DNA of 43,355 bases from assembly GCF_004010195.1 (NCBI RefSeq), contig NC_057718.1, positions 82,601,848-82,645,202 of the forward strand. Direction: 5' to 3'. This DNA comes from Chiloscyllium plagiosum. Lineage: Eukaryota. A program made the position numbers and the translations under genes. The notes under the pieces were generated by a model. It was not told the origin of the DNA and ran no database searches. It worked only from the letters and a program-made list of their open reading frames with translations. Below are positions 5,385-42,735 of the stretch, one piece after another; position 1 is the stretch's first letter; each line of letters begins with the position of its first letter.

Positions 5385-6258
5385 TATCTGTCCTCCTTGG
5401 CCCAACTTATCCATGCCACCCAGATTTCACAATTAATCTAGACCCATTTACCTGCAATTGGTCCATAGCCCTCCATACCTATCCCATCCATATATTGGTC
5501 ATAGAGTCATAGAGTCATAGAGATGTACAGCATGGAAACAGACACTTCAGTCCAACCCGTCCATGCCGACCATATATCCCAATCCAATCTAGTCCCATCT
5601 GCCAACACCCGGCCCATATCCCTCCAAACCCTTCCTATTCATATACCCATCCAAATGCCTCTTAAATTATGCAATTGTACCAGCCTCCACCACTTCCTCT
5701 GGCAGCTCAATCCAAACACTTATTACCCTCTGCGTGAAAAAGTTGCCCCTTAGATCTCTCTTATATCTTTCCCCTCTCACCCTAAACCTATGCCCTCTAG
5801 TTCTGGACTCCCCGACCCCAGGGAAAAGACTTTGCCTATTTACCCTATCCATGCCCCTCATAATTTTNNNNNNNNNNNNNNNNNNNNNNNNNNNNNNNNN
5901 NNNNNNNNNNNNNNNNNNNNNNNNNNNNNNNNNNNNNNNNNNNNNNNNNNNNNNNNNNNNNNNNNNNNNNNNNNNNNNNNNNNNNNNNNNNNNNNNNNNN
6001 NNNNNNNNNNNNNNNTCCTGCTAAGATTTCTTTCCCAAAATGCAGCACCTCACATTTATTTGAATTAAACTCCATCTGCCACTTCTCAGCCCATTGGCCC
6101 ATCTGGTCCAGATCCTGTTGTATTCTGAGGTAACCCTCTTCACTGTCCACTACACCTCCAATTTTTGTGTCATCTGTGGTCTAAATGTTTCTAAAATGAC
6201 AGAATTATACCCAGCTCCACAACGACCTCTGGTAACCCGTTCCAGAGACTCAGCACTT
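5385..6258 (-). mobile_element. CR1 LINE 3' end with a younger CR1 (5501-6176) nested inside
   Basis: (CATAGAGT)n tail at ~5500-5522; RGHRFRVRG...FFTQRV...W and WQMEFNSNKCEVLHFG peptides; TGGTC duplicated at 5496-5500 and 6177-6181. Confidence 0.9.
5868..6015. other. Assembly gap (148 N) inside a CR1 copy
   Basis: Run of N. Confidence 1.
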
Positions 6259-8542: not shown

Positions 8543-8762
8543 CAAAATACTGCAGATGCTGGAAATCAAAAACAAGCAGAAAGTGGGGGGAACCGCAGGT
8601 CAAGTAGGATCTGTGGATACAGAAACAGAATTAACATTTCAGATTGATGGCCTCTCATTGGAATGCTTTCAATGAAAAGTCATGAACCTGAAATGTGAAC
8701 CCTTTCTTTCTGCGCAGAATCTGGCTGACATACTGAGTATTTTCTTAGTGTTTTCTATTTTT
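8543..8762. mobile_element. Old palindromic PLE-terminus mini-element
   Basis: aaatactgcagatgctggaaatc...atctgtggatacagaaacagaattaacatttca mirrored by tgaaatgtgaaccctttctttctgcgcaga...; heavily diverged. Confidence 0.65.
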
Positions 8763-13728: not shown

Positions 13729-13925
13729 TAGGCGAAAGTGAGGACTGCAGATGCTGGAGATCAGATACTAGATTAGAGTGGTGCTGGAATAGGTCAGGCA
13801 GCATCTGAGGAGCAGGAAAATCGATGTTTCAAACATAAACATTCCTGATGAAGAGCTTATGCCCAAAATGGTGACTCTCCAGCTCCTTGGATGCTGCCAG
13901 ACCGGCTGTGTTTTTTCAGCACTAC
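13729..13925. mobile_element. Palindromic PLE-terminus mini-element with decayed hammerhead
   Basis: gtgaggactgcagatgctggagatc tail and inverted arms. CTGATGA-A-GAGC ttat GCCC-AAAAT starting at 13845. Confidence 0.82.
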
Positions 13926-21900: not shown

Positions 21901-22382
21901 GTTATACCTCTGCCATCTAGAGTGATAAAGGCAGTAAATACATGGGAACACCATCACCAGCAAGCTTCCCTGCAAGCCGCACACCATCCTGACTTGGAAA
22001 TGTATTCTTGTTCCTTCGGTTTTATGTGGCCAGAATTCTGGAACTCCATCCCTAAAGGCATCATGCACATGGACGTCATGAACTTCATTGCTTGAAGAAG
22101 ACATCTCACCACCACCTTTCCCCAGGCATTGAGGAGGTTGGCAGTACATTCTTGCCACGCCAATGACACCCACATACCATGAAAGAATATATTTTTAAGA
22201 AGTATCCCCATCATTGCTCTAGGCAGGAACACTACTGCTGTGCCACAAGAACACTGAGATAATTGTGTAGATCTACCAAAGAGCCAGCAGAGCTGTGATA
22301 GGCCAATTGACCTCCCTTTTCCTTCTCATCCTATGACTGTGAAGCATCACCTACAGTTAGCTGAGGAATATACGTGCTGTCA

Positions 22383-22946
22383 GTCATAGAGTCTTAGAAA
22401 TGTACAGCACGGAAACAGACCCTTTGGTCCAACTCGTCCACGCCGACCAGATATCCCAACCCAATCTAGTCCCACCTGCCAGCACCCAGCCCATATGTTG
22501 CCCCTTAGGTCTCTTTTATATCTTTCCACTCTCACCCTAAACCCTTTAGTTCTGGACTCCCCCACCCCAGGGAAAAGACTTTGTCTATTTATCCTAATCC
22601 ATGCCCCTCATGATTTTATAGACCTCTATAAAGTCACCCCTCAGTCTCTGACACTCCAGGGAAAATACCCCCAGCCTAGTCAACCTCTTCCTACAGCTCA
22701 AATCCTCCAACCCTGGCAACATCTTTGTAAATCTTTTCTGGACCCTTTCAAGTTTCACAACATCTTTCCGATAGGAAGGAGACCAGAGTTGCATACAATA
22801 TTCCAACAGTGGCCTAACCAATGTCCTGTACAGCCGCAACATGACCTCCCAACCCCTGTACTCAATACTCTGACCAATAAAGGAAAGCATAACAAGCGTC
22901 GCCTTCACTATCCTATCTACCTGCGACTCCACTTTCAAGGAGCTAT
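22383..22946 (-). mobile_element. CR1 LINE 3' fragment
   Basis: ORF 22594-22938 LYRTLVRPLLEYC.Q.WSP.YRKD..KLERVQKRFT; tail near 22383. Confidence 0.93.
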
Positions 22947-24265: not shown

Positions 24266-25096
24266 TGATAGATAGTACCATTATGACATTTGTAAGATTA
24301 TATTTTGGAAATATCACTAATTAAAAATAAACAAAGGAGATTATGTGACCTCTTTCATAGTTTACTGAGGGTAAGCTTAAATAATTTGATTGTTAGAGAT
24401 CAGCAGAAGGCTTAAATTGTTCTTCTGCAAAGGTACAAGGTCCTTATTTGAAGGCAAGGACAGCGGTCTCTGAGTTTACGATGAGCAGACTCTTGAGTCT
24501 CCCAAAGTCCCAGAAAGCTATTGAAGGTCGTGGAACGTAAATAAATTTGTTGAAATTTTCTGTTTACTTCTCTGATGAAAGGGAGTTGAGATCAAGGTTA
24601 GTTAATGAGTGTTTTACCTAAACACAAGGCCAATGTATTTCACATGGTCATGGAAAGAGGCAGAGGAAGCATTTGTGAGGTGAAATTGCAGGCTTCTTTG
24701 CAAGTGAATGAACATCACAGTTTCTATGTGGCCAGCCAAGAGAAATGCTGCCTGGATTCTGAACTACCACAGACAAATGCAGGAGGGAGACAGTCTTTAG
24801 TTGAAGAGACACATTCTCAGTCTGGATTCAGAGAAACTCTGCCATGGTTGTAGAAAAATGAATCCACAGAATATGTCTGACTGCTGGAATTCTCCAAAAA
24901 CAGCGGAAGGAGTCTGGAGACAGTCATTTAAAATGGGATACTGGCACCCATGGGAAACGAGGAACAAATGTGAAATGTTTTCCAAAAGGACTTAATTCTG
25001 TGGAGAGTGCAACAGGTGATACATGCAAAATAGGAATGTCACTTTCTGCAGTTTAAATTATCAGTAGCTTGGAAATCAAAAATAGTTCTTAATTAT

Positions 25097-25245
25097 AAAC
25101 AAAAACAGAAATTGCTGGAAAAACTCAGCAGGTCTGGCAGCATCTGTGGAGAGAAATCAGAGATGCTGCCAGACATGCTGAGTTTTTCAATCAATTTCTG
25201 TTTTTGTTTGTGATTTGCAGCACCAGAATTTCTTTCGGTTTTTAT
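25097..25245. mobile_element. Palindromic PLE-terminus mini-element lacking the hammerhead centre
   Basis: 49-bp inverted arms 25097-25145/25161-25209. The arm matches 28177-28225 of the PLE remnant. Confidence 0.82.
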
Positions 25246-25757: not shown

Positions 25758-26508
25758 GAGTCATAAAGCTGTACAGCACAGAAACAGATCCTTTGGTCCA
25801 ACTCGTCCATGCCGACCAGATATCCTAAATTAATCTAGACCCATTTACCAGCACTTGGTCCATATCCCTCTAAACCCTTCCTATTCATATACCCATCCAG
25901 ATGCCTTTTAAATGCTGTAATTGTACCAGCCTCCTCCACTTCCTCTGGCAGTTTATTCCATACACGTACCACCCTCTGTGTGAAATGGTTGCCCCTTAGC
26001 TCCCTTTTATATCTTTCCCCTCTCACCTTAAATCTATGCCCTCTAGTTCTGGACTCCCTGACCCCAGGGAAAAAACTTTGTCAATTTACCCTATCCATGC
26101 CCCTCATGATTTTATAAACCTCTATAAGATCACCCCTCAGCCTCCGACGCGCCAGGGAAAACAGCCCCAGCCGTTCAGTCTCTCCCTATAGCTCAAATCA
26201 TCCAACCCTAGCAACATCCTTGTAAATCGTTTCTGAATCCTTTCAAGTTTCACAGCATCCTTCTAACAGGAAGGAGACGAGAATTGCATGCCATATTCCA
26301 AAAGTAGCCTAACAAATGTCCTGTACAGTGGCAACTTGACCTCCCAACTCCAATTCTCAATTGCCTCACCAATAAAGGAAAGCATACCAAACACCTTCTT
26401 CACTATCCTATCCAGGAACTATGAACCTGCTCTCCAAGGTCTCTTTGCTCAGCAACACTCTCTGGGACCTTACCATTAAGTCCTGCTCTGATTTGTTTTT
26501 TCCAAAAT
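25758..26508 (-). mobile_element. CR1 LINE 3' fragment
   Basis: RGNHFTQRVVRVWNKLPEEV...FKRHLD peptide; same 3' tail as other copies. Confidence 0.93.
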
Positions 26509-28268: not shown

Positions 28269-29003
28269 CAGAGGAGCATCGATTATCTGAATGAGATGGG
28301 CAGGCAATATTTTGTTTGGATGATTGATTATTCGATTAATTCGTTCAATGCCTCTCCTCTGGGGCTCGGGGTTTTCTGAAGTTTTATTTCCTCGCTCTAC
28401 CTGCCTTGTTCCCTCTCTCTGTCTGAGTTTGTTTCTGAGCAGACACACAGTTGTGTGTAAGGGACCTGCAGCACTGCTGAGACCTCCCGCTCCTCCACCC
28501 ATCAGTTCAATGGGATTGACACAGCGAGCACTTGCTATGCCTGCTCCCCGTTGGGGAGACTCGGCAGCAGCACACCGTGCACACGCCCCTGGCCCCGCCC
28601 CCTTTGGGGGATGAGTTTCAAAATAGCGCGCACACACAAAAATTCTTATTGCTACTTTTTCACAGGTTCAACCTTTCCCACCTGTACAGGACAATATTGA
28701 AGAGATTATATGGGGAAGGGGGGGTTTAGCGTACACCCCAGGGTAGGACTCCAGGGAAAGTGTGGGGGGAGAGGGGGAGGGTAGGAGACAGTTATTTGGA
28801 GATGGTGCCTGGGCTCCCATCGATGTCCAGGACTGTTCTCGGCAGCATTTCAGTAAACCGAGTTCACTTTTAATCACTATAAACAAGACACTATCAATGT
28901 TGGAATCGCATCTTTGATGTAATGTTTCTATCGGGACTTTGAGATCCTCTTCAGATAATCCAAAATTCAGATAATTGATATTTGGATAATCGAGGTTCCT
29001 CTG
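28269..29003. mobile_element. Non-autonomous pogo/Tigger-like (Tc1/mariner) DNA transposon, 735 bp
   Basis: TA|CAGAGGAGCATCGATTATCTGA ... TTGGATAATCGAGGTTCCTCTG|TA imperfect TIRs, TA TSD, repeated subterminal GATAAT motifs. No transposase ORF. Confidence 0.85.
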
Positions 29004-29123
29004 TATTTACTGTTGGGGGTCTGTGAGGCTACGGATATAACAATTAGTTTTGGAATTGTTATAATTGAGCCCGATCTGTTTTAAGTTTTTCTCACCTGTA
29101 TAATGCACTCTGTTCTTTTTTAG

Positions 29124-29177
29124 GAAGAGGAGAGGGCAGTGATGGAGGAAGGTATGAAGGAGGGGACATCTGTCTAA
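29124..29177 (+). CDS. RRBP1: RRBP1 terminal coding exon, EEERAVMEEGMKEGTSV*
   Basis: ttcttttttag acceptor, TAA at 29175-29177. Ends in KEGTSV, the RRBP1 C-terminus as recalled from human. Confidence 0.95.
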   Translation, partial: EEERAVMEEGMKEGTSV

Positions 29178-29735
29178 AGAGCCTACAGTTGCAGTGAACA
29201 CTACTCGAACTTGCCAGATGCCTTACAGATATAATAGTTCTTATGCCATTCCTAAACCATGCGCTCAGTATTGTACTGTAGTTAATTATGAACTGTTAGT
29301 GAGCCAGTCAAAAGTTTGAAAAAGTTCTAGTCACCAATTTTTTAAAAAGCTTTTTTGACTTTTCTTCTCATTTTAAGACATATTACAACCAATGAGCCCT
29401 GACTGTGTCAGTGAGCTGAAATCTAGATGTCCACTTTGTATATGAAACAAAATGACCTGAATGCTCAGTTTACATGAAAAGGGAAGCAAATGTACTGTTT
29501 TGGGGAATGTACATTGAATTGTGCAATTATTATTATTTTTTCTTCAAGAAAAAATGAATAAGCAAGAGGAAAGGAGCAAATGAAGTTTAGGTCTTTCAAT
29601 GATTTTTATTCAGCTGTGAGGCAAACCTTGACCAGTGACATGACCGGGTTGTCAACAGAACAAGTTTTCACAACATTTTTTGTTTTTCTAAAAGTTGTCA
29701 GTACGACAAATAAAACATTGTAACCGCTGTTCACT
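29178..29735 (+). other. RRBP1: RRBP1 3'UTR (3' end approximate)
   Basis: AT-rich stretch with no recognisable repeat between the stop codon and the first canonical AATAAA. Confidence 0.65.
29709..29714 (+). promoter_or_regulatory. Polyadenylation signal AATAAA
   Basis: First canonical hexamer after the stop codon, with U-rich upstream sequence. Confidence 0.7.
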
Positions 29736-31396
29736 GCCCCATGTGATCTTTCCATTGGGAATATCAAGGGATGAGTTGAACACCAAGATTCACTTTCAAA
29801 TTCATGACATGGGGCTTATCCAAATGTCTGCTCTTCCTAAGAATGCTGTCACACCTGTTTGGCTATGGGGTGCACTGGGGGTCTGAATTTAGCCGTGACC
29901 TGGTGTCTGTATTTGTGCACTTTGTCAATAGACAGAGATGAAATGGATACCATGGATTATTACACTGTTCATGACCCCAGCTGTGCATGACCCCTTACTG
30001 TTACCTTGGTTAATTTAAAAAACCTTTCTGACCTTACAGTCTAGTTCTACATCACAAAGTGCATTTATCAAATAATGTAAATAGGAAAACTTTCTCAATA
30101 TTTTGAAGACATAGGAATGAAAATCAGTAGCTGAATTCATAGAATTAATGTTTGCACAGTTCCAGTCTGAATATAAAGGGTTTGGGGACAAAGTAAAGAG
30201 AGAAGTAAGCAAGTGAAAAGAAGGTATGAGGAGAGACCGGCAGCTAACAGCAAAAGGAACACAAAACCCTTCTTTTGGGTTTTAAATAGTTAAAGTGGAT
30301 TTGGAGTTGAAAAGGAACCAAAAAAAGGATTTAACACATGGAGGCAGAGGGAACGACTGAGATTTTAACTTAGTACTTTGCAGTTGTCTTTACCAAAGAA
30401 GAAGATGCTAACAAAATCATCATAGAAGAAGGGTTAGATAATACGCTGGATGAATGAAAATCATAGAGAGAGAAGTTACTTGAAAGGCTGGATATACTGC
30501 AAGTCAATAAGGCAACAGAACCAGATCAGATTTGTCTCAGCTGCAGAGGGAAATCAAGATGAAAATTGACAAGGCAGTGGCCATAATATTCCAATCCTCT
30601 TCAGAGACCAGGATACTGGCAGAGAACTGGATCAATACAAAATGTGCACCTAGTTCAGCGACTCAAAGCAAGTCAGACTAAGTTCAGTGATGAAAAATCT
30701 TCTAGAAATTAAACAGAAGTAACAAGCACGTGGATAAATGCATATTATTTAAGGAAAATCAGAAGATTTGTTCAATGCAAACTGTCGACTATGTGTTTCT
30801 TTTTGATGAGATAACAAGGAGGGCTAAGGGCAATGAAGGTGAGGTGGTGTTCATAAACCTCCAAAATGTGTTTAATAAAGTACCACAAAACAGACCTGTC
30901 AGCAAAATTAAAGCCCATGCAAAGGCAAGGATGGAGTCCATTTTGATTTAATCCCTCCCTACCTTTCCCTTACCCTTAATGGGACTTTGCCTGTAAATTA
31001 ATCAGTTGTAAAACATGGGTGATTTACTGATTAATAGGTGAAAATCATCACAGGCATTTGGTGATGGAAAAAACTGTTGTGTGTGATAGCACGTCTAGAT
31101 CTGAAAAAGAGCAAAGAAAGAAACGGTTAGTGACAATGTGGATACAGTATTGGCTGAGTGACCAGATACAGGATAGTGCTGAATAGGTTTCTTTTCCCTC
31201 AGAGTGGAGGAAGGGTTTTGGTGGATACACAGTGGTTGGGCCCTAGGTCTACTGTTCTTCTTGATTTATGTTAATGGATTAAACTTGGGTTTCAGGGAAA
31301 TAATGCACTTTAAGGATAGCGATGGATTACAGCAGGACTCTAATGGGCTGCTAGAATAGGTGGCTATGTAACAGATGAAATTTGATGCAGGAAGTT

Positions 31397-31730
31397 GGGC
31401 TGGCCTGGTCGTTCAGTGGTTTGCACTGCTGTCTTACAGCACCAGGGACTTGGGTTTGATTCCAGTCTTGGGCAGCTGTCTGTGTGGAGTTTGCACATTC
31501 TCCCCGGGTCTGTGTGGGTTTCTGCCAGATCTCTGGTTTTGTCCAACAGTGATGTGCAGGTTAGGTGGATTGACCATGCTAAATTGTCTGTAGAACAAGG
31601 ACATGTAGGCTAGGTGGATTAGCCATGGGAAATGTGGGGATAGGGGTTGGGTCTGGGTCTGGGTGAGAAGCTCTTTAGAGGATCAGTGTGGACTTGATGG
31701 GCTGAATGACTTCCTCCTGCACCGTACGGA
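31397..31730 (+). mobile_element. HE1-like tRNA-derived V-SINE (older copy, inside a CR1)
   Basis: Diverged head, V-domain tgtctgtgtggagtttgcacattctcccc, tail ggacttgatgggctgaatgacttcct. Confidence 0.85.
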
Positions 31731-31929
31731 CACAATGAAATTGGGAAGTGATAGAAGGAATGTGGAGAGCCAATATGAAATCTAAAGAATTTCTAAACGG
31801 TGCAGAAGCAGGGGGATCTGGATAGTTAGATTCTTTTGAAACACATGAAACCAATAAAATAATTAACAACCATTTGGAATGTGATGCTGTAACCTCCCAA
31901 TGACTAACCACAGAAACTAATGGTACCAT

Positions 31930-32040
31930 ATTAAATTACAATGTCACTCTGGGTGATGATGCAGCATTCCAGCCCCTGCAGCTCCCACTGGTTGTGGAAT
32001 GCCTCGAGTGCTATTAGACACTGTATGCTCCTTCACACAT
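31930..32040 (-). mobile_element. Tx1-like ORF2 C-terminal fragment
   Basis: Minus strand KEHTVS...LEAFHNQWELQGLEC. Confidence 0.55.
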
Positions 32041-32609
32041 GGGGGTGAACATCAAATTGGAAGAGAGATCAGCGGTTGAACCAAACAATCCTAAACCCTT
32101 GGCTGCCTGGACCTGCTAATGGCTAGACACAGGGGCAGCCTCATAACGGGGCTATCTGATCTGCTTGTCTCTCTCTGAACTGGTGGTGAAAGATCAGGAG
32201 CATGGAGATGAAGTGTAACAAAACATTGAGCAGTGCAACTTCACACATCCTATGTAGACATGGGACACAGACTCCACAAGGCTGCAGGGGGTTCTGTAAC
32301 TCGGGACTTGTAAACTGACAGCCTTCTCTGAGTGGAATCGTGGCAAACGATACCCTCCATACCCAAAGGAGAAGGGAGGAGTTGGTCTAGCTCTGTGTGG
32401 TAGATTACTACCATTCCAGGAGGCAGGACTGAATACTGCACCATGTGCTGACAGCCGCTGAGGGTGAAGAAGGTGAAAGTGTGCAAGAATCCCCTCTCTC
32501 TGGAGAGTCGAACTGTACAGAATGGTTTTCTGCAAGACAGCCCCGATTGTGGGGCTGAGGCTCCATCTAGAGGAAATGTACTTGTGAGAACAACAATTAT
32601 AAGGTAACT

Positions 32610-32782
32610 ACTGAATGAGCTGCCCTTTGAAAGGACACTAACAAAAGAGCAAAAACTATTAAAGGAAACTTAAGAAATTAGAATAATGTTCCCAGGGCTG
32701 ATGATGCACTCCAGCCCCTGTGGCTTCCAATGGTCAAAAAAATGCCTTTAAGTGTATCCTTGTATTAGCTCCTTTTCCAGGT
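32610..32782 (-). mobile_element. Tx1-like ORF2 C-terminal fragment with 3'UTR
   Basis: Minus strand LEKE...FFDHWKPQGLECII; homologous to 31930-32040. Confidence 0.55.
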
Positions 32783-32922
32783 TGCTGTCCAGGTGGTACG
32801 TATACACAGGATGTTGAAAACCGCAGGACAGGTTGAGAAAGCGGTTCATGAGGCAGGTGAGATCCTAGGCTTTATAATTAGAAGCATAGCGCAGAAATTC
32901 CCCTCCTTATACATGATGACTA

Positions 32923-34051
32923 ACGTAGAACATAGAACATTACAGCACAGTATAGGCCCTTCAGCACTCCATGTTGCCCCAACCTGTGGAACCAAACTGA
33001 AGCCTATCTATCCTATACTATTCCATTTTCATCCATATGTTTATCCAATGGCCATTTAAATGCCCTTAAAGTTGTTGAGTTGACTACTGATGCAGGCAGG
33101 GAATTCCATGCCCTTACTACTCTGAATAAAGAACTTACCTCTGACATCTGTCCTACATCTATCACCCCTCAGTTTAAAGCTATGTCCCCTCATGCTAATC
33201 ATCACAATTTGAGGAAAAAAGCTCTCACTGTCCACCCTGCTCATCCTCTGATCATCTTGTATGTCTCTACTAAGTCACCACTTAACCTTCTCTCTATCAA
33301 AAACAGCCTCAAGTTCCTCAGCCTTTTCTCATAAGACCTTCCCTCAACACCAAGCAACATCCTGGTAAATCTCCTCTGCACCCTTTCCCAAACTTTTACA
33401 TCCTTCCTATAATGCCGCAACCAGAACTGTATGCAACACTCCAAGTGTGGCCATACCAGAGTTTTGTACAGCTGCAACATGACCTCATGGCTCCAAAACT
33501 CAATCCCTCCATCAATAAAAGCTAACACACCATATACCTTCTTAACGACCCTATCAAACTGGGTGGCAACTTTCAAGGATCTATGCAAACAGACACCAAG
33601 ATCTTTCTGCTCATCCACACTACCAAGAATCTTACCATTAGCCCAGTACTGTATTCCTGTTATTCCTTCCAAAGCGAATCACCTCACATTTTACCACATT
33701 AAACTCCATTTGCCACCTCTCAACCCAGCTCTGCAGCTTAACTATGTCCCTCTGCAACATCCTTCAGCACTATCCACAACTCCACTGACCTTAGTGTCAG
33801 CTGCAAATTTACTAACCCATCCTTCTACGTCCTCATCTAGGTCATTTATAAAAATGACAATAGCAGTGGACCCAAAACAGCGCCTTGCAGTACATCACCA
33901 GTAACTGAACTCCAGGATGAACATTTCCTATCAACCACCACACTCTGTCTTCTTTCAGCTAGCCAATTTCTGATCCAAATCGCTCAATCATCCACAATCC
34001 CATGTCTCCGTATTTTCTGCAAGAGCCTATTGTGAGGAACTTTATCAAATG
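32923..34051 (-). mobile_element. CR1 LINE 3' fragment, (CATAGAA) tail subfamily
   Basis: ORF 33241-33672 DLGV.LHRSLKVA.Q...LYKTLV.PHLE.C.QFW. Confidence 0.93.
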
Positions 34052-34319
34052 TAGGAGAAAGGGCTGAGAGCTTATGAGCTAGAGGCTGAACAATGGAGAC
34101 TGCAACACGTCAGGTGTAGAGTGGGCAGGTGCTGCATTCCTCCCAGCAGGGGCTACTTACACCTCACAGGATAGGAACTTCTGATTTGGTCAGTGGTCAC
34201 GTGACTATGACAGAGGCATTTAAGGGGAGCCACAGGACTGGAGCACCTCTAGGTGTCCAATAGGTTGAAGGTTCTCTCAGCCTGTTCGGATTAGAGCCAG
34301 GGCTGCAGGTTCAAACTGA

Positions 34320-37060
34320 GCCAATTTGATTCCCTCCACGTGACATCAGCAAATGGTTGGCACTGGCAAATGTAAAGGCTATGGGCCTGGACAACGTTCT
34401 GGCAATCGTACTGAAGGCTTGTGTTCCAGAACTTGCTGCTCCCCTGGCCAAGCTCTTCCAGGACAGTTATAAGACTGGGATCTACCCGACAATGTGGAAA
34501 ATTGCCCAGGTATGTTCTGTACATAAAAAGCAGGATAAATCCAAACCAGCCAATTACCACCCCATCACTCTACTCTTGATCATTAGGAAAGTGATGCAAG
34601 GTGTCATCAGCAATGCTCTCACGCAGCACCTGCCCAGCAATAAACTGCTCAATGACACCCAGATTGGGTTCCACCAGGGCCACTCAGCTGCTAACCTCAT
34701 ACAGCCCCAATCATAGACAAAAGAGCTAAATTCCAGAGAGTGAGGTGACAGTGATAGTCTTTAACATCAAAGTTACATTCGGCTAAATATGGCAACATGG
34801 AGAGCGAGCAAAACTGGAATCGTAGAGTTACTGAGATGGACGGCATAGAAAAAGATCCTTCGGTCCAACTTGTCCATGCCAACCAGATATTCTAAATAAA
34901 TCCAGCATTTGGCCCATATCCCTCCAACCCCTTCCTAATCATACAGCCATCTAGATGCCTTTTAAATGTTGTAATTGTACCAGCCTCCACCACTTCCTCT
35001 GGCAGCTCATTCCATACACGCACTATCCTCTGTATTAACATGTTGCCCCTTAGGTCCCTTTTAAGTCTTTCCCCTCTCTCCTTAAACCTGTGCCCTCTCA
35101 TGTTGAACTCTCCCACCCCAGGGAATAGACCTTGTCTATTTATCCTATCCATGCCCCTCATGATTTTATAAATCTCTACACGGTCACCACTCAGCCTCTG
35201 ATGTTCCAGGGAAAACAGCCTCAGCCTGTTCAGCCTCTCCCTATAGTTCAAATCCTCCAACTCTGGCAACATCCTTGTAAATCTTTTCTGAACCCTTTCA
35301 AGTTTCACAACATCCTTCCTGTAGCAAGAAGACCAGAACTGAATACAATATTCCAAAAGTGACTTCCCCAATGTCCTGTACAACTGCAACACAACCCCCA
35401 ACTCCTATACTCATCCCGTTGTACTCTGAGGTAGCCTTCTTCACTATCCAGTACACCTCCAATTTTGGTGTTGTCTGCAAATTTACCAACAGTACTTCCT
35501 TTATTCACATTCAAATCATTTATATAAATGACAAAAAGCAGTGGACCCAGCACCAATCCTTGAGGTGCACCACTGGTCACAGGCCTCGAATCTGAATAAC
35601 AACCCTCCACCATCCTCTGTTTCCTACCTTTGAGCCAATTTTGTATCTGAATGGCTAGTTATTCCCATATTCCATACAATCTAACCTTGCTAACCAGTAT
35701 ACCATGCAGAACTTTGTCACACACCTTACTGAAGTCCATATAGACAACGTCCACCACTCTGCCTTCATCAATCCTCTTTTTCACTTCTTCAAAAACCTCA
35801 AGTTTGTGAGATGCAATTTCCCAAGCACAAAACCATGTTGACTATCCCTAAGCAGTCCTTACCTTTCCAAATACATGTAAATCCTATCCCTCAGGATTCC
35901 CTCCAACAACTTGCCCACCACCAACATCAGGCTCACTGGTCTATAGTTCCCTAGCTTGTCCTTACCACCTTTCCTAAAACAGTGGCACCACGTTTGCCAA
36001 CCTCCAGTCTTCCAGCACCTCACCTGTGACTATCGATGATACAAATATCTCAGCAAGGGGCCCAGCAATCATTTCCCTAGCTTTCTGTAAAGTTCTAGGG
36101 TACACCTGATCAGGTCCAAGGATTTATCCACCTTTATGCATCTTAAGACATCCAACACCACCTCCTCTGTAATATAGTCACTTTTCAAGGTATCATTATT
36201 TATTTACCCAAGATGTCTAGCTTCCACATTCTCCTCAGCAGTAAATACTGATACATTTTGTAACTCACCCATTTCCTGCGGGTTTCACACATATGAATAC
36301 AAGGGAGCAGTCATGCCTAGTAAATAGGAAGATGGCCTTGGTTGTTGGAAGGTAGTCATCTCAGCTTCAGGACATTTCTACAGGAGTTCCTCAGTGTATT
36401 GTCCAAGGCCCAACTATCTTCAATTGTTTCATCAATGATGTTCCTTCATCATAAGGTTAGAGTGGGGATGTTTGCTGATGATTGCATAATATTCAGCACC
36501 ATTCATGGCTCTTCAGATACTGAAGCAGTCCATGCTCAAATGCACCAAAATCAGGATAGTATCCAGGCTTTGGCTGACAAGTGACAAGAAACACAAGTGG
36601 CACCACACAAATGCCAGACTATGACCATCACCAATAAGAGACAAGCTAACTATCACCTTTGACATTCAATGATCTTACCATCACTGAAATCCCCAACTAT
36701 TAATATCCCAGTGGTTACCGTTCACCTGAAACGTAACTAGACTCACCACATAATCACAATGGCTACCGAAGCAGGTCAGAGATTAGGAATACTGCGGTGA
36801 CTAACTCAACTCCTGACTCCCCCAAGCCCCAATCATCTACAAGGGGCAAGTGTGATGGAGTATTCCCCACATTGCCTGAATGGATGCAGTTTCAACAATA
36901 CTCAGGCACTTGATTGACAGTACATCCACCAATGGTTTGCAGGTGGACCGCAGCGGTTCAAGAAGGCAGTTCACCACCACCTTCGCAAGGGCAAATAGGG
37001 GCAGGCAATAAATGCTGGCCAGCTAGTGATGCCCGCATCCCAAGAATGAATTAATACAAA
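34320..37060 (+). mobile_element. Second CR1-superfamily LINE family (RT to 3' end), split by the CR1 at 34823-36288
   Basis: KAMGLDN...PELAAPLAKLFQ...W..A.V..VHKK.DKS.PANY.PI.LL; MFADDC; 3' end aataaatgctggcc...cccaagaatgaa. Confidence 0.85.
34823..36288 (-). mobile_element. CR1 LINE ORF2 RT/3' fragment nested in another LINE
   Basis: VTSGAPQGLVLGPLLFVIYINDL and KFADNTKIGG RT motifs; C-terminal ORF 34892-35401. Confidence 0.94.
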
Positions 37061-37851
37061 ATGGCACCGTGGTAACAAGGAATTATTCAAGTTGGGGTAG
37101 GAAGCAACAAGGAATAAAGCAGTTGTAGGGAATAGTGTAGTGACGAGGATGGGGAAGATCCAATGGTTGAGGTCTGTGAAGATACCAACATCACAGATAG
37201 GACAAGGAAAGGGATTCTAAAGAAATTGAGGATCTGGGAACTGAATCAAAAAGTAGAACCTCAAAGGTTAGAATCTCTTACTAGAGCCACATGCAAGTTA
37301 GCATAGGGTACATAAAATGAGAGAGGTGAACTTGTGACACGAAGACTGGTGAAGGAGAAATAGGTTTTAGTCTGTGGACCACTGAAACCAGCGCTGGGGA
37401 ATGTCAGAGTTCTACCATTGAGACAGTCTATACCTGAACCATGCTGGGGGCAATCTTCTTGTGAACTGTGTAACTGAGGAAGTAGGGAGTTTTAAAGTAA
37501 ATTGTAGAGGCAAGAGATCAAATATGGGAGGAAGTGATTTGTCAAAAAGTAGAGACAAAGTAAGAAAGGGAAATAGTGATACAAGAAATGAGGATCAGAG
37601 AACAGAAGGGAGGGGCAGAGAAAAAAAACTATTAATACACCAACATTCAAGACTACGTGCTACATACACAACAAAAAGACAAAATTAAACCGTCTGTGTC
37701 TGCATATGTGCAGCATTCATAACAAAATAAACAAATAGCACACATTGAAACAAATGAATATAATCCAATAGCCATTATGAAGACTTGGCAGCATGATGAT
37801 AAGTATTGGGGTTTAGGGTGTAGCTTTACTCGCTGAGCTGTAGGTTTATAT

Positions 37852-37891
37852 CCAGACGTTTCATTACCTGGCTAGGTAACATCATCAGTGG
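37852..37891 (-). ncRNA. Minimal type I hammerhead ribozyme, mirror copy
   Basis: Exact reverse complement of 38685-38724. Confidence 0.85.
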
Positions 37892-38272
37892 CGACCTCCA
37901 AGTGAAGCGAAGCTGTTGTCTCCTGCTTTCTATTTATATCTTTCCCCTGGATGGGGTTCCTGGGTTTTGTGGTGATGTCATTTTCTGTTTGTTTTCTCAG
38001 GGGTTGATAGATGGCATCTAGATCTATGTGTTTGTTTATGACGTTGTGGTTGGAGTGCCAAGCCTCTAGGAATTCTCTGGCATGTCTTTGCTTAGCCTGT
38101 CCCAGGATAGATGTATTGTCCCAGTCGAATTGATGGTTTTTTTCATCCGTGTGTAGGTCTACGAGGGAGAGAGGGTCGTGTCTTTTTGTGGCTAGCTGGT
38201 GTTTGTGTATCCTGGTGGCTAACTTTCTTCCTGTTTGTCCTATGTAGTGTTTGTGGCAGTCCTTGCATGGAA

Positions 38273-38587
38273 CCCATGAACAAAACCAACGTCATCTACA
38301 AAATTCCATGCAAGGACTGCCACAAACACTACGTAGGACAAACAGGAAGAAAGTTTGTCACCAGGATACACGAATACCAGCTAGCCACAAAAAGACACGA
38401 CCCTCTCTCCCTCGTAGCCCTACACACGGATGAAAAAAACCACCATTTTGACTGGGACAACACATCTATCCTGGCTCAGGCTAAGCAAAGACATGCCAGA
38501 GAATTCCTAGAGGCCTGGCACTCCAACCACAACACCATAAACAAACACATAGATCTAGATACCATCTATCAACCCCTCAGAAAATGA
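38273..38587 (+). pseudogene. 5'-truncated PLE ORF, GIY-YIG endonuclease domain
   Basis: VIY...CxxC...YVG, conserved R, E and N of the GIY-YIG fold. The mirror arm reads YIG and is open from 38270 to 37872 on the minus strand. Confidence 0.9.
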
Positions 38588-38684
38588 ACAGGAAATGACA
38601 TCATCACAAACCCCAGGAACCCCATCCAGGACAAACATATAAATAGAAAGCAGGAGACAACAGCTTCGCTTCACTTGGAGGTCA

Positions 38685-38724
38685 CCACTGATGATGTTAC
38701 CTAGCCAGGTAATGAAACGTCTGG
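38685..38724 (+). ncRNA. Minimal type I hammerhead ribozyme of the PLE terminus
   Basis: CCA-CTGATGA-T-GTTACCT agcc AGGTAAT-GAAAC-GTC-TGG: catalytic boxes, stem II, palindromic ACGT stem III, stem I CCA/TGG. Confidence 0.85.
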
Positions 38725-40584
38725 ATATCAAACCTACAGCTCAGCGAGCAAACCTACACCCTAAACCTCAACCTGAACTACAAACCTTCACAAACCTTGC
38801 AATAAGTATTGGGTTTTGAATCTTAAGGTGTATCCAGGAAGAATAGGAAACTAAGCAGCACTGTTAATTAAGGAGTTGATAAAATGTTATCAAGGTAGTT
38901 TCTTAGAGCTGCATATTCTAGAAACAACCAGACAGCAGATTATATTAGGCTTGGTATCAGTAATGAGATAGTATTAATTAAATAGCTCAAATTAAGGGTA
39001 CCCAATGCATCAGTAACCTTTAATAATCTTGAATTTTACAAGCAGTTTGAAGGGAGAAGATTAGGTCTGAGATTTGTGTTTTAAACCTAAATAACGTGAG
39101 CATGAAAGCTGATCTAAAAACTAAAGTGAACTGGCATACTAGGCTAGGAGACAGATCAATAGAGACATAGTGGCAGGCATTTAAGGGATATTTCAGAATA
39201 CTCAGAATAAATATGTCCGTGCTATAAAAAGAATTTTTAAAGGGTAGATTCAGCATCCATGGTTAACTAAAGGCAAAACCATAACTATGCAAAGATGAAC
39301 AGCAGGTCAGATAATTGGTCAGAATATGAAGAGCAGCAGAAAATGACTGAAAGATTAATCGGGAGGAAGACATTAGAATATGACTGGACGCTAACTAGGA
39401 ATGTAAAATTAGCAAGGATTTTCACAGGTATTTTAAAAGGAAAATAATTCGTAACTTGAGTGCTGGCCATCTCAGTGAGTGAGAATGGGGAGTTAATGGT
39501 AGATGATATGGAAATGGCAGATGAAATGAATAAATATTTTGCTTCTGTCTTCACTATTGAGGATACCAAAAAAAATTCCAGTAAGGTGTAAATCAGGAGG
39601 TCAAAGAGAGAAAGGAACTTAATGAAGTTATGATCACAAGGAAGTGATATCGTGCAAAGTGATAAAACTGTGGGCTGACAAGTCTGGGGGTTCAGATGGA
39701 ATTTATCCCATGGTCTCAAATGAGATTGCTAATTTTCCAAAATTCCCTAGATGCCATTAGACTGCAAAGTGGCAACTATAACCCCTCTATTCAAGAAGGA
39801 AGGGAGTCAGAAAACAGGATAGTCCTTTCTGTGGTCCTTTCTGTAGGCAGTAAAAAGCTAAACCAGTTATATAGTAGGTTGTTTCAAGTGTGCATCCCTT
39901 AGAGCCTGAGGGAGAGTAATAAGAGCCTAGGGTTAGGAAGAGACTAATGGGAAGCAGGGCATAGTGGATGGAGTTGAGGATGCAGTTGAACAGTTTGGTA
40001 GCTGCACAAATATTATGGTGACGTGAGTTTAGTCAGGTGGATCCAACTGTCATAAATTAGTTGGGAGTGAGGTCTGATGGCTTAGAGAGCAGCATCCTTG
40101 CATCTGATCCAGAAGCTCAGGGATCAACTCTCACTCCAAGACTTGATGACTAAGGAGTAATTGTCAGCCTGTACATCCTGCTTGTATACCACTGGCCATG
40201 CTCCAGGTGCCAGGTCAGGATACATGGGAAAGGTTAGCATCAGGAAGTGTCTCCAGTGGTTACCCCAACCCATCCCCTCCCCCAACACCATCACTGTCAA
40301 TGGTTGATATGAAGGCAATCAACTGGCATTGTGATGATCCCTGTAACACAGGAAACCAAAGGAATGAGAAGTATAAATGGGGAGAGTACTACTTGCTGGA
40401 GCCAACACAGAAGGAAGTAGGGCTGGGAGAGACTGAGGTTGTGTATGGTACGTACTAAACAAGGAAGTGATCAGAAATGGTCTTTGGAATTGAGACAGTG
40501 GGAGCAGCAAGGTCACAAGACGACAAGGCCTGTGAATTTGGATTGGGGACGTTTTTGAAAAGTATTTCGCATGAAGTGCTCATC

Positions 40585-41910
40585 ACCAATGAAGTCAACA
40601 TTTCTTGCCCATCCTTAATTGCCCTTGAAAATGGTAGTGAGCCATCCTTCTACACCACTAAACTCCATGTGGTGTAAGTACACTGTGCTCATAGAAAGGG
40701 AGTTCCAGAATTTTAACCTAGTGACATTGAAGAAACAATGATATAGTTCCAAATCAGAATGCTTTGTGACATCAGTGGTGGTCACATTACCTCGTAATTG
40801 CTGCTCTTGTCCTTTTAAGTGGCAGAAGTCACACATTTGAACGCTGCAGCACATCTTGTCATTGGTGGTGTAAGAGATCATTTAAGTGGTGGTTAGGCTA
40901 TTGATGAGCTGGGGTGCTTTGCCTTGAATGGTGTTGAACCTATTGAACATTGTTGGAGCAGCACTCATCCAGTTAACCACAGCCCTGACTTGTGCATTGT
41001 AGATAGAGGACAGGCTTTGGGAGTTAGGAGGTGACAGGATTCCTCATGTGGCTGCACTATTAATATGACTGGTCCAGTTCAGTTTGGATTAATGGTATTC
41101 TGGATTAGTGGAGCTGGAAGAGCACAGCAGTTCAGGCAGTATCCAAGGAGCTTCGAAATCGACGTTTTGGGCAAAAGCCCTTCATCAGGAAGCTTGGATG
41201 CTGCCTGAACTGCTGTGCTTTTCCAGCACCATTAATCTAGAATCTGGTTTCCAGCATCTGCAGTCATTGTTTTTACCTCGTTGGATTAATGGTAACCCCA
41301 GGAAACTGATCATGGGGATTTCAACCATAGAATATCATTGGAAGATAGTTCGATTCTCTCTTGTTGAAGATCGTCATGCATGTTACTTGTCACTTACCAG
41401 CTCACATCTGAAAATCGCCCGGGTCTTCCTGCACTATGGGCAAAGCCATTTCAGTTTCTGAGGGGTTGTAAATGGTGTTGAACATTGTCAACAAACAACA
41501 AACCTACTTATTTTAAAAGGCAGTCGTTGATGAAATAGCTAAAAATGGGGTTAGGATACAATTCTGAAGAACTCTTACTCATGCCCTTGGATTGGCACAA
41601 ACAGCTTTGTGTTCCTTTGTGCTCCAGACAGTGGAGATTTTTCTCCCAATTTCCACTGATCCCAGTTTCGCTAGGGCTCCTTGATGCTGCACGCAACCAA
41701 ATGCAATCTTAATGCCAAGGGCTGTAACCCTTACCTGACCTTTGGAATTCAACTCTTTTGTCAATGTTTAGACCTGAGGCTGCAACCAATTCGGGAAATG
41801 GTTAGCTCTGGTCAAACCCACAATGAGCGTCATTGAACAGGTTATTGCTGTATAAATGTCCCTGAAGATATCAATAGTGCTATCATCACTTTATTCATGA
41901 TCAGAAGCAG
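40585..41910 (-). mobile_element. Second LINE family, antisense degenerate copy
   Basis: Reverse complement of motifs at 21900-22190 and 36330-37050. Confidence 0.75.
41098..41280. mobile_element. Palindromic PLE-terminus mini-element, hammerhead on minus strand
   Basis: Perfect 14-bp TSD TTGGATTAATGGTA at 41084-41097 and 41281-41294. Minus strand reads CTGATGA-A-GGGC tttt GCCC-AAAAC-GTC. Confidence 0.88.
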
Positions 41911-42389: not shown

Positions 42390-42735
42390 ATAGAGTCACA
42401 GAGTCATAGAGCTGTACAGCACAGAAACAGCCCCTTCAGTCCAACTCATCCATGCTGACCCAATATCATAAATTAATCTAGTCCCATTTGCCAGCCTGTG
42501 GCCCATATCCCTCTAAACCCTTCCTATTCAAATACTCATTCAGATACCTTTTAAATGTTGTTATTGTACCAGCCTCCACCACTTCCTCTGGCAGCTCATT
42601 CCATACACGCACTACCCTCTGTGTGAAACAGTTGCCCCTTAGGTTCCTTTTATATCTTTCCCCTCTCACCCTAACCTATACCCTGTGACTCCCCTGCCCC
42701 AGGGAAAAGACCTTGTCTGTTCACCCTATCCATGT
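42390..42735 (-). mobile_element. CR1 LINE 3' end
   Basis: tagagtcacagagtcataga tail; ORF 42478-42669 FTQRVVRVWNELPEEVV. Confidence 0.92.

Follow-up and report, generated by a model that had tools for sequence, protein, structure and literature searches.

How did two mirror-image copies of the end of one retroelement, each with a hammerhead motif, come to lie inside a single target-site duplication (TSD) downstream of the RRBP1 gene, and do the hammerheads, or the hairpin that contains them, have a role there? The question concerns a unit formed by a Penelope-like element (PLE) in a stretch of 43,355 nt of Chiloscyllium plagiosum (NC_057718.1); this stretch is called the window, and all positions are counted within it. 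We conclude that the unit very probably represents a single dead-on-arrival insertion of the Penelope/Poseidon clade into an old remnant of a CR1-type long interspersed nuclear element (LINE), which has decayed since and whose hammerheads are passengers. It is an ordinary PLE leftover, a clean example of an insertion pattern that has already been published.

Architecture of the unit

A reading of the window made from its letters alone, here called the sequence-only reading, had described inverted PLE 3'-end copies at 37811-38272 and 38304-38766 with scattered mismatches, an additional 35-nt tail on the right side only, and a 12-bp TSD around the whole, taken to indicate a single insertion event. 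All of this was reproduced. Alignment of the left arm (37811-38272, minus strand) with the right arm (38304-38766, plus strand) gave 463 columns with 93.7% identity and a Kimura two-parameter distance of 0.064, the 29 differing columns comprising 28 substitutions and one 1-nt insertion/deletion (indel). The self-comparison proposed as a check recovered the inverted arms at these positions (self-BLAST of the window, E=0), and an inverted-repeat scan reported the pair 37845-38272/38304-38731 at 94%, together with 37806-37847/38730-38771. An exact 12-bp direct repeat (37799-37810 and 38802-38813) adjoins both outer ends; the chance of its 12-mer occurring near the far end is about 6e-5, and exact 12-mer pairs at a spacing of 900 to 1100 nt number four in the window, i.e., the TSD and three others. 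One TSD encloses the entire unit, and neither single arm has its own. The tail (38767-38801) is present at the right end only and consists of A and C to 74%. The unit contains the following parts, in which ORF denotes an open reading frame and pLTR a pseudo-long terminal repeat.

37799-37810, plus strand: TSD, left copy; its last bases match the antisense end of the element at four of five positions (junction microhomology)
37811-38272, minus strand: inverted 5'-truncated PLE copy with an endonuclease remnant lacking the first motif, the ORF stop, and the pLTR with hammerhead
37852-37891, minus strand: left-arm minimal type I hammerhead, with the cut predicted after 37855
38266-38278, no strand: head-to-head junction, a mini-palindrome of 5 bp around 3 nt
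38273-38303, plus strand: additional coding sequence at the 5' end of the right copy, with the first (GIY-equivalent) endonuclease motif; loop of the hairpin
38276-38587, plus strand: remnant of a GIY-YIG endonuclease in the right copy, 103 aa
38304-38766, plus strand: right arm, direct 5'-truncated PLE copy
38685-38724, plus strand: minimal type I hammerhead of the right arm, predicted cut after C38721
38767-38801, plus strand: AC-rich 35-nt tail, ending 108 to 111 nt past the hammerhead ATGs
38802-38813, plus strand: TSD, right copy

The 31 nt between the arms, described by the sequence-only reading as a spacer, proved to belong to the coding region of the right copy and to be read in the same frame as its endonuclease. 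The right copy, which includes these 31 nt at its 5' end, is thus direct and 529 nt long, and an inverted copy of 462 nt is joined to that end. The left copy ends 73 to 76 nt past the hammerhead ATGs, has no tail, and differs from the right copy by the 1-nt indel. Judging from the reading frame of the relatives described below, the two copies probably share a 2-nt overlap (AA) at 38271-38272.

Against two independent insertions, one TSD surrounds the whole unit and none surrounds a single arm. A non-autonomous element moving as a unit, similar either to a miniature inverted-repeat transposable element (MITE) or to a retrozyme, would account for the long terminal inverted repeats and the TSD, both of which are properties of fold-back DNA elements. 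In a MITE or fold-back DNA transposon, however, the terminal inverted repeats are symmetric and flush with the TSD, and one unit occurs in many copies. Here, the ends are asymmetric by the 35 nt of the PLE tail, the arms consist of PLE coding sequence, and the window holds no second copy of the unit's centre junction; a MITE or fold-back DNA transposon was rejected because of the asymmetric ends and the PLE content. Retrozymes are same-strand tandems (bioRxiv 10.64898/2026.07.22.740005; PMC7229834), whereas the locus has one hammerhead per strand and no tandem array, and a non-LTR retrozyme was rejected as well. Taken together, two insertions or a mobile fold-back unit are highly improbable.

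Even less probable is an assembly artefact, i.e., a fold-back chimera or a mis-join of two family copies. Such structures do trouble short-read assemblies (PMC8557442), and the window contains N gaps; yet the arms differ in 29 of 463 columns, the TSD is exact over 12 bp, the 35-nt tail has a published size, and the frame of the host LINE runs across the site. The sequence-only reading had already held TSD and arm divergence against an artefact, and both were verified. An arm divergence of 6% with an excess at CpG sites, together with the TSD and the tail, indirectly supports the presence of the inversion in the animal.

Identity of the element

The endonuclease remnant of the right copy has CxxC between two motifs and retains R, E, and N; reverse transcriptase (RT) sequence is missing, the His kept in most relatives is replaced, and a premature stop is located at 38585-38587. 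The left endonuclease lacks its first motif. Of the earlier claim that a GIY-YIG domain is encoded on each strand, the family assignment therefore holds by homologs, and neither domain is intact. Note that the Pfam GIY-YIG score of the right copy (14.4 bits) is under the cut-off of 22.6 bits, so that its identity rests on homologs.

The 103-aa right-arm protein used as a query yielded 29 longer relatives out of 76 candidates. The best are RT/endonuclease (EN) proteins of carpet sharks with 71 to 81% identity, to whose C-terminus the right copy aligns, and within the window their matches are confined to 38237-38752 and the mirror arm. In this family, the RT is located upstream in the same ORF: P0003 and P0007 of the relatives have matches to RVT_1 (E 3e-6 and 3e-8, respectively), and P0013 and P0022 carry a precomputed PF00078 assignment. 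A CX2-5CxxC linker is absent from six of six relatives checked; the linker region itself lies outside the locus. As linker-less RT-EN proteins separate Penelope/Poseidon from Neptune and Nematis (PMC8557442), the family is placed with Penelope/Poseidon, and homologs and linker criterion together support the assignment of the locus to an EN+ (endonuclease-bearing) PLE of this clade. The copy is non-autonomous, lacking an RT and having its ORF broken by the stop at 38585. The window yielded no RT match and, outside the unit, no PLE fragment exceeding 28 nt. A second homolog search (18 proteins, the closest at 73%) did not polarise the arm differences, and a metagenome scan with a peptide pattern gave 123 stretches, none of which was confirmed.

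Two side observations concern the family. On the minus strand, 41450-41476 resembles the PLE endonuclease region over 28 nt (89%, E 0.002), a similarity that may reflect a tiny fragment or chance. Six of the 29 relatives (P0002, P0009, P0025, P0026, P0027, and P0028) are annotated as isoforms of shark host genes, i.e., MAP3K7, CUEDC2, si:ch1073-145m9.1, EYA3-like, ZSWIM7, and WBP2-like, with a PLE endonuclease C-terminus; these are predicted cases of PLE ends used as terminal exons, or else gene-model artefacts.

The insertion site

The unit is flanked on both sides by weak, colinear matches to a profile built from 20 LINE proteins, scoring 2.0 bits on the left and 7.7 bits on the right, and the frame of this host LINE continues across the site once one TSD copy is removed.

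37723-37810, plus strand: decayed CR1-type LINE endonuclease in the left flank, weak match to profile positions 42 to 65
38814-38971, plus strand: decayed CR1-type LINE endonuclease in the right flank, same frame, profile positions 184 to 212

In tblastn searches with 20 long LINE proteins, none of the 20 gave a match spanning the site. Immediately to the right of the insertion, about 120 positions of the profile appear to be absent.

The hammerhead motifs

There is one hammerhead motif per strand, with the cores at 38688-38718 (plus) and 37888-37858 (minus). The right motif is composed of a 3-bp helix I, CUGAUGA, an unpaired U, a 7-bp helix II with a G-U closing pair, GAAA, and the palindromic ACGU. 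Of the features that define minimal hammerheads, the conserved core, helices I and II, the unpaired base at 9/10.1, and the palindromic 15.2-16.2 are present, whereas a G-U pair replaces the G-C pair at 10.1-11.1 in both arms; helix III is absent from both. The earlier description of the two hammerheads as identical and complete thus stands as regards identity, and they are intact only as the minimal motif, without helix III and with G-U at 10.1-11.1. The cut predicted after GUC 38721 is at the correct position for the motif. The right hammerhead overlaps the start ATGs (38691 and 38694) of the next ORF copy, which places the predicted cut at +28 from the second ATG (+31 from the first), the outer end of the copy at +108 (+111), and its inner end 35 nt earlier.

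A search with hammerhead covariance models, proposed earlier as a check, did not bear out the motifs: Rfam gave no match at the gathering threshold over the window and, for 37600-39000 at E<=10, seven matches below threshold, none of them to a hammerhead family. A regular expression for the core matched four times in the window, twice at the motifs of the arms and twice without supporting context, and scans of metagenomes with a degenerate hammerhead pattern gave no matches. The active-like monomer fold of the motif reaches a probability of 0.002 at -7 kcal/mol. Given this value, the missing helix III, and the lack of an Rfam hammerhead match, a canonical monomer-active hammerhead was rejected.

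The 40-nt motifs are identical between the arms, which has P=0.075 at the arm-wide difference rate (Fisher p=0.16); in 96% of permutations, some stretch of 40 nt is free of differences. Selection on the hammerhead was rejected, as the identity of the motifs is within chance.

Predicted RNA fold and the neighbourhood of RRBP1

The expectation that transcription in either direction would give a long hairpin of double-stranded RNA (dsRNA) agrees with fold prediction, in which a transcript across the unit forms a hairpin of about 460 bp with a minimum free energy of -845 or -860 kcal/mol, depending on the strand. In these predictions, the sense hammerhead is paired with its perfect antisense copy in the far arm at a mean probability of 0.9995 on both strands, the motif-antisense duplex amounting to -77 kcal/mol versus -7 for the active-like monomer. 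The motif is already zipped at seven of seven transcript lengths tried, because the antisense copy is transcribed first. According to these models, cutting by the hammerheads in a unit-spanning transcript is unlikely, and we infer a lack of cleavage in vivo. If transcribed, the hairpin could plausibly serve as an ADAR/Dicer substrate, as would any such repeat.

Neither strand of the unit contains a poly(A) hexamer. A crude scan noted acceptor-like, pyrimidine-rich AG sites in the unit at 38000, 38105, 38247, and 38417 (plus) and at 38329 and 38159 (minus). A microRNA precursor was rejected: all four Rfam scores are under gathering (MIR2630, 109 of 144 bits; MIR7127, 60 of 100; MIR827, 37 of 65; mir-745, 21 of 62) and represent generic long-hairpin matches.

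The sequence-only reading had further suggested that the hammerhead is a cleavage site in RRBP1 read-through RNA, about 8 kb past the poly(A) signal. Gene, strand, and distance were confirmed by homolog search, the interval from the first downstream AATAAA to the TSD being 8085 nt.

29124-29714, plus strand: last coding exon of RRBP1 (29124-29174), stop (29175-29177), and first downstream AATAAA (29709-29714)

A role as a termination aid, with the sense hammerhead cutting the read-through RNA, or as a regulatory ADAR/Dicer hairpin kept by the host, could draw on this arrangement at 8.1 kb, on the high stability of the hairpin, on the two unchanged motifs, and on the small interfering RNAs (siRNAs) that arise from inverted Penelope regions in flies (PMC3681739). 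The cleavage part of the proposal fails in our analysis: cutting of the RRBP1 read-through RNA is unlikely because the hammerhead is sequestered in predicted pairing and has neither helix III nor a same-strand tandem partner. In addition, the motif identity is within chance, a poly(A) hexamer is lacking in the unit, RRBP1 and the unit are separated by several more remnants of CR1 and other repeats, and for the Anolis carolinensis element no RNA reads ending at the cut site were found (PMC11167929). Passive dsRNA formation alone would not prove a function of the hairpin. A sequencing-run search with 28900-38303 returned 24 rows, 8 of them with at least half of the words (one organism, two studies), and no RNA run was listed. 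Overall, a functional role of this kind is very unlikely.

Origin of the two arms

We propose the following course of events. The GIY-YIG endonuclease of the element would have cut the target with a stagger that gave the 12-nt duplication, and reverse transcription would have started from the outer AC-rich start site, 108 to 111 nt into the ORF, and halted after about 530 nt. The same event would have made the mirror arm, in the simplest case by folding back of the cDNA end over the 31-nt loop and copying of itself, the fold-back copy being resolved at the inner boundary of the tail. Afterwards, both arms would have decayed neutrally, with the hammerheads as pLTR passengers locked in the long duplex of any unit-spanning transcript; if transcribed, the locus would probably share the fate of repeat hairpins, i.e., editing or small-RNA silencing, with no role in RRBP1. 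Family, anatomy, the pattern of differences between the arms, the predicted fold, and the position relative to RRBP1 are shown by the analysis, whereas the order of the synthesis steps and the neutrality of the decay are what we infer.

Within this single-insertion account, fold-back copying is somewhat the likelier way to the second arm. The 5' truncation points of the two copies are just 31 nt apart, which would be expected in about 4 to 5% of cases if they were independent, and the 5-bp mini-palindrome at the junction (38266-38278) is also counted in its favour. The divergence of the arms has marks of decay: CpG-site columns differ in 7 of 24 cases and other columns in 22 of 439 (p=3e-4, a contrast inflated by the definition of the sites from the arms themselves), and CpG losses occur on both arms. 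By comparison with the relatives, four of the ten amino-acid differences in the endonuclease are derived on the right arm and three on the left, with three unsettled, and the right-arm stop comes in addition. Over the whole ORF, the proportions of nonsynonymous and synonymous differences (pN/pS) are 0.061/0.085 (p=0.29).

Separate priming of the two arms is a possible but clearly less likely route within the account, and other routes are rather unlikely. In a full dual-priming scenario, both cut 3' ends of the target would be extended from two RT start sites on two RNAs, possibly of different subfamilies, and the cDNAs would be joined by the 2-nt overlap, so that the arms would have been different from birth. 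The protein of the Anolis element, a predicted dimer, is able to cut as well as extend the two strands and has two start sites that bound the tail (PMC11167929); the two ends here are offset by exactly the 35-nt tail. A weak synonymous excess, clustered differences, a quiet hammerhead region, and a divergence that is large for a slowly mutating lineage point in the same direction, as does relative P0009, which shares two left-arm residues; at one of these, other relatives carry the right-arm residue. Against dual priming stand the proximity of the truncation points and the occurrence in both arms of CpG-type losses, along with damaging changes that are private to each. The three sequence tests all fall short of significance, and the position of the inner start site is itself inferred from the length of the tail. 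Fold-back copying is favoured over dual priming, again without a significant sequence test, and we consider dual priming doubtful. Slightly more doubtful still is the extended view of the unit as the fossil of a one-step event, in which a dimeric PLE RT would have primed both arms on two different RNA molecules, one from each of its two start sites; the inverted copy and the one-sided tail would be aspects of a single phenomenon, and the architecture would switch off its own ribozyme. A literature search of partial coverage found no report of dual priming of PLE arms or of shark PLE fold-backs.

Several observations weigh against the single dead-on-arrival insertion with neutral decay of one template. 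The LINE profile scores are equal at all 28 junction offsets, so that they give no empty-site register, and fold predictions take neither proteins nor tertiary contacts into account. Three features weakly favour two templates: a synonymous excess in the endonuclease core that is not significant (pS 0.106, pN 0.050, p=0.11), eight close pairs of arm differences (p=0.09), and a region of 92 nt around the hammerhead with just one difference (p=0.24 after scanning). By our own arithmetic, a divergence of 0.032 per arm corresponds to about 4.5e7 generations at 7e-10 per generation, which is large for a slow lineage; this mutation rate is that of one species, with a confidence interval of 1.4 to 14.1e-10 (PMC10587355). 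Finally, neutrality and single-template origin both rest on one pair of arms. We nevertheless hold to the single PLE insertion as the very probable origin of the unit.

Other features of the window

Twelve coding exons of RRBP1 were located on the plus strand at 961-29177 by homolog search; they correspond approximately to residues 651 to 1003 of the shark protein, its C-terminal third. Pfam and Atlas searches did not recognise these exons. The last RRBP1 intron has a GC-rich stretch at 28480-28620 with GC-box-like motifs. At least six 3'-end fragments of CR1-type LINEs, 67 to 88% alike and mostly on the minus strand, are distributed over the window, and palindromic repeats of 70 to 150 bp, several of them mutually 70 to 78% similar, may constitute a second, older hairpin family.

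5501-6176, 22382-22946, 25758-26412, 33245-33874, 34817-35549, and 42390-42734: CR1-type LINE 3'-end fragments
1528-1665, 8631-8699, 13734-13925, 25091-25215, and 41097-41265: short palindromic repeats

Significance and comparison with known systems

On its own, this locus is of little consequence; it is useful as a test case. Its end positions agree with start sites determined in vitro for a lizard Poseidon element, and how far the arms of an insertion have diverged can tell fold-back copying and dual priming apart, for which a family rather than a single copy is needed. If dual priming were true, the two arms would have been unlike from the start, and the many such units in shark genomes would allow a test by subfamily typing of arm pairs. 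Involvement in a host function near RRBP1 would be of greater importance, and nothing at the locus points there.

PLE insertions typically consist of a copy with an adjacent inverted 5'-truncated copy and a one-sided tail of 30 to 40 bp (PMC8557442). Inverted pLTRs, TSDs of 8 to 10 bp, a 31-bp tail, and junction palindromes have been described, with self-priming proposed (PMC3846280), and in Drosophila virilis Penelope copies flanked by inverted repeats are the most frequent form (PMC2377424). The unit fits this picture of EN+ PLE complex insertions: it has an inverted 5'-truncated copy joined head-to-head at its 5' end, a one-sided tail, a TSD around the whole, a junction palindrome, and a pLTR that includes the first ORF codons. 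The statement of the sequence-only reading that PLEs carry minimal hammerheads in their pLTRs and often have an inverted 5' copy likewise matches the published pattern (PMC8557442, PMC3846280, PMC4209133). Unlike the published insertions, the unit has no internal RT or second direct pLTR and is a near-pure hairpin of endonuclease and pLTR alone; its TSD measures 12 bp versus 8 to 10 bp in the rotifer examples (PMC3846280).

The closest positional parallel is the Poseidon element PAc of Anolis carolinensis (PMC11167929). Its ORF starts in the hammerhead, its ribozyme cuts 26 nt downstream and only with the element's protein, and its RT starts in an AC-rich stretch 111 to 118 nt into the ORF, with the tail between two start sites. 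The shark unit shares the ORF start within the hammerhead, the AC-rich tail, and the AT-rich target; its predicted cut is 28 rather than 26 nt past the ATG, and its outer end lies at +108/+111. PAc is full-length and active in vitro, whereas the shark copy is decayed and lacks an RT, and the two were compared by positions.

With the minimal hammerheads of PMC4209133, the motifs share the 7-bp helix II, the short helix I, the unpaired base before helix II, the palindromic 15.2-16.2, and the absence of helix III. They differ from them in having G-U in place of the conserved G10.1-C11.1 and a helix I of 3 bp rather than 4 to 5 bp, and they are predicted motifs only. Published opposite-strand pairs are 100 to 700 bp apart, versus about 830 bp here. 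Cleavage by a minimal hammerhead depends on another same-strand copy: single motifs gave no cleavage and dimers low cleavage (PMC4209133).

In Drosophila, siRNAs match inverted Penelope regions (PMC3681739), whose long arms are capable of forming dsRNA, as are those of the shark unit; the fly result was obtained for transcribed copies. Non-LTR retrozymes (PMC7229834) have a type I hammerhead of PLE origin and no coding capacity, as here, and retrozymes comprise at least two consecutive same-strand hammerhead repeat units (bioRxiv 10.64898/2026.07.22.740005). Such same-strand tandems permit dimeric cleavage, whereas the opposite-strand motifs of the shark unit are predicted to block each other.

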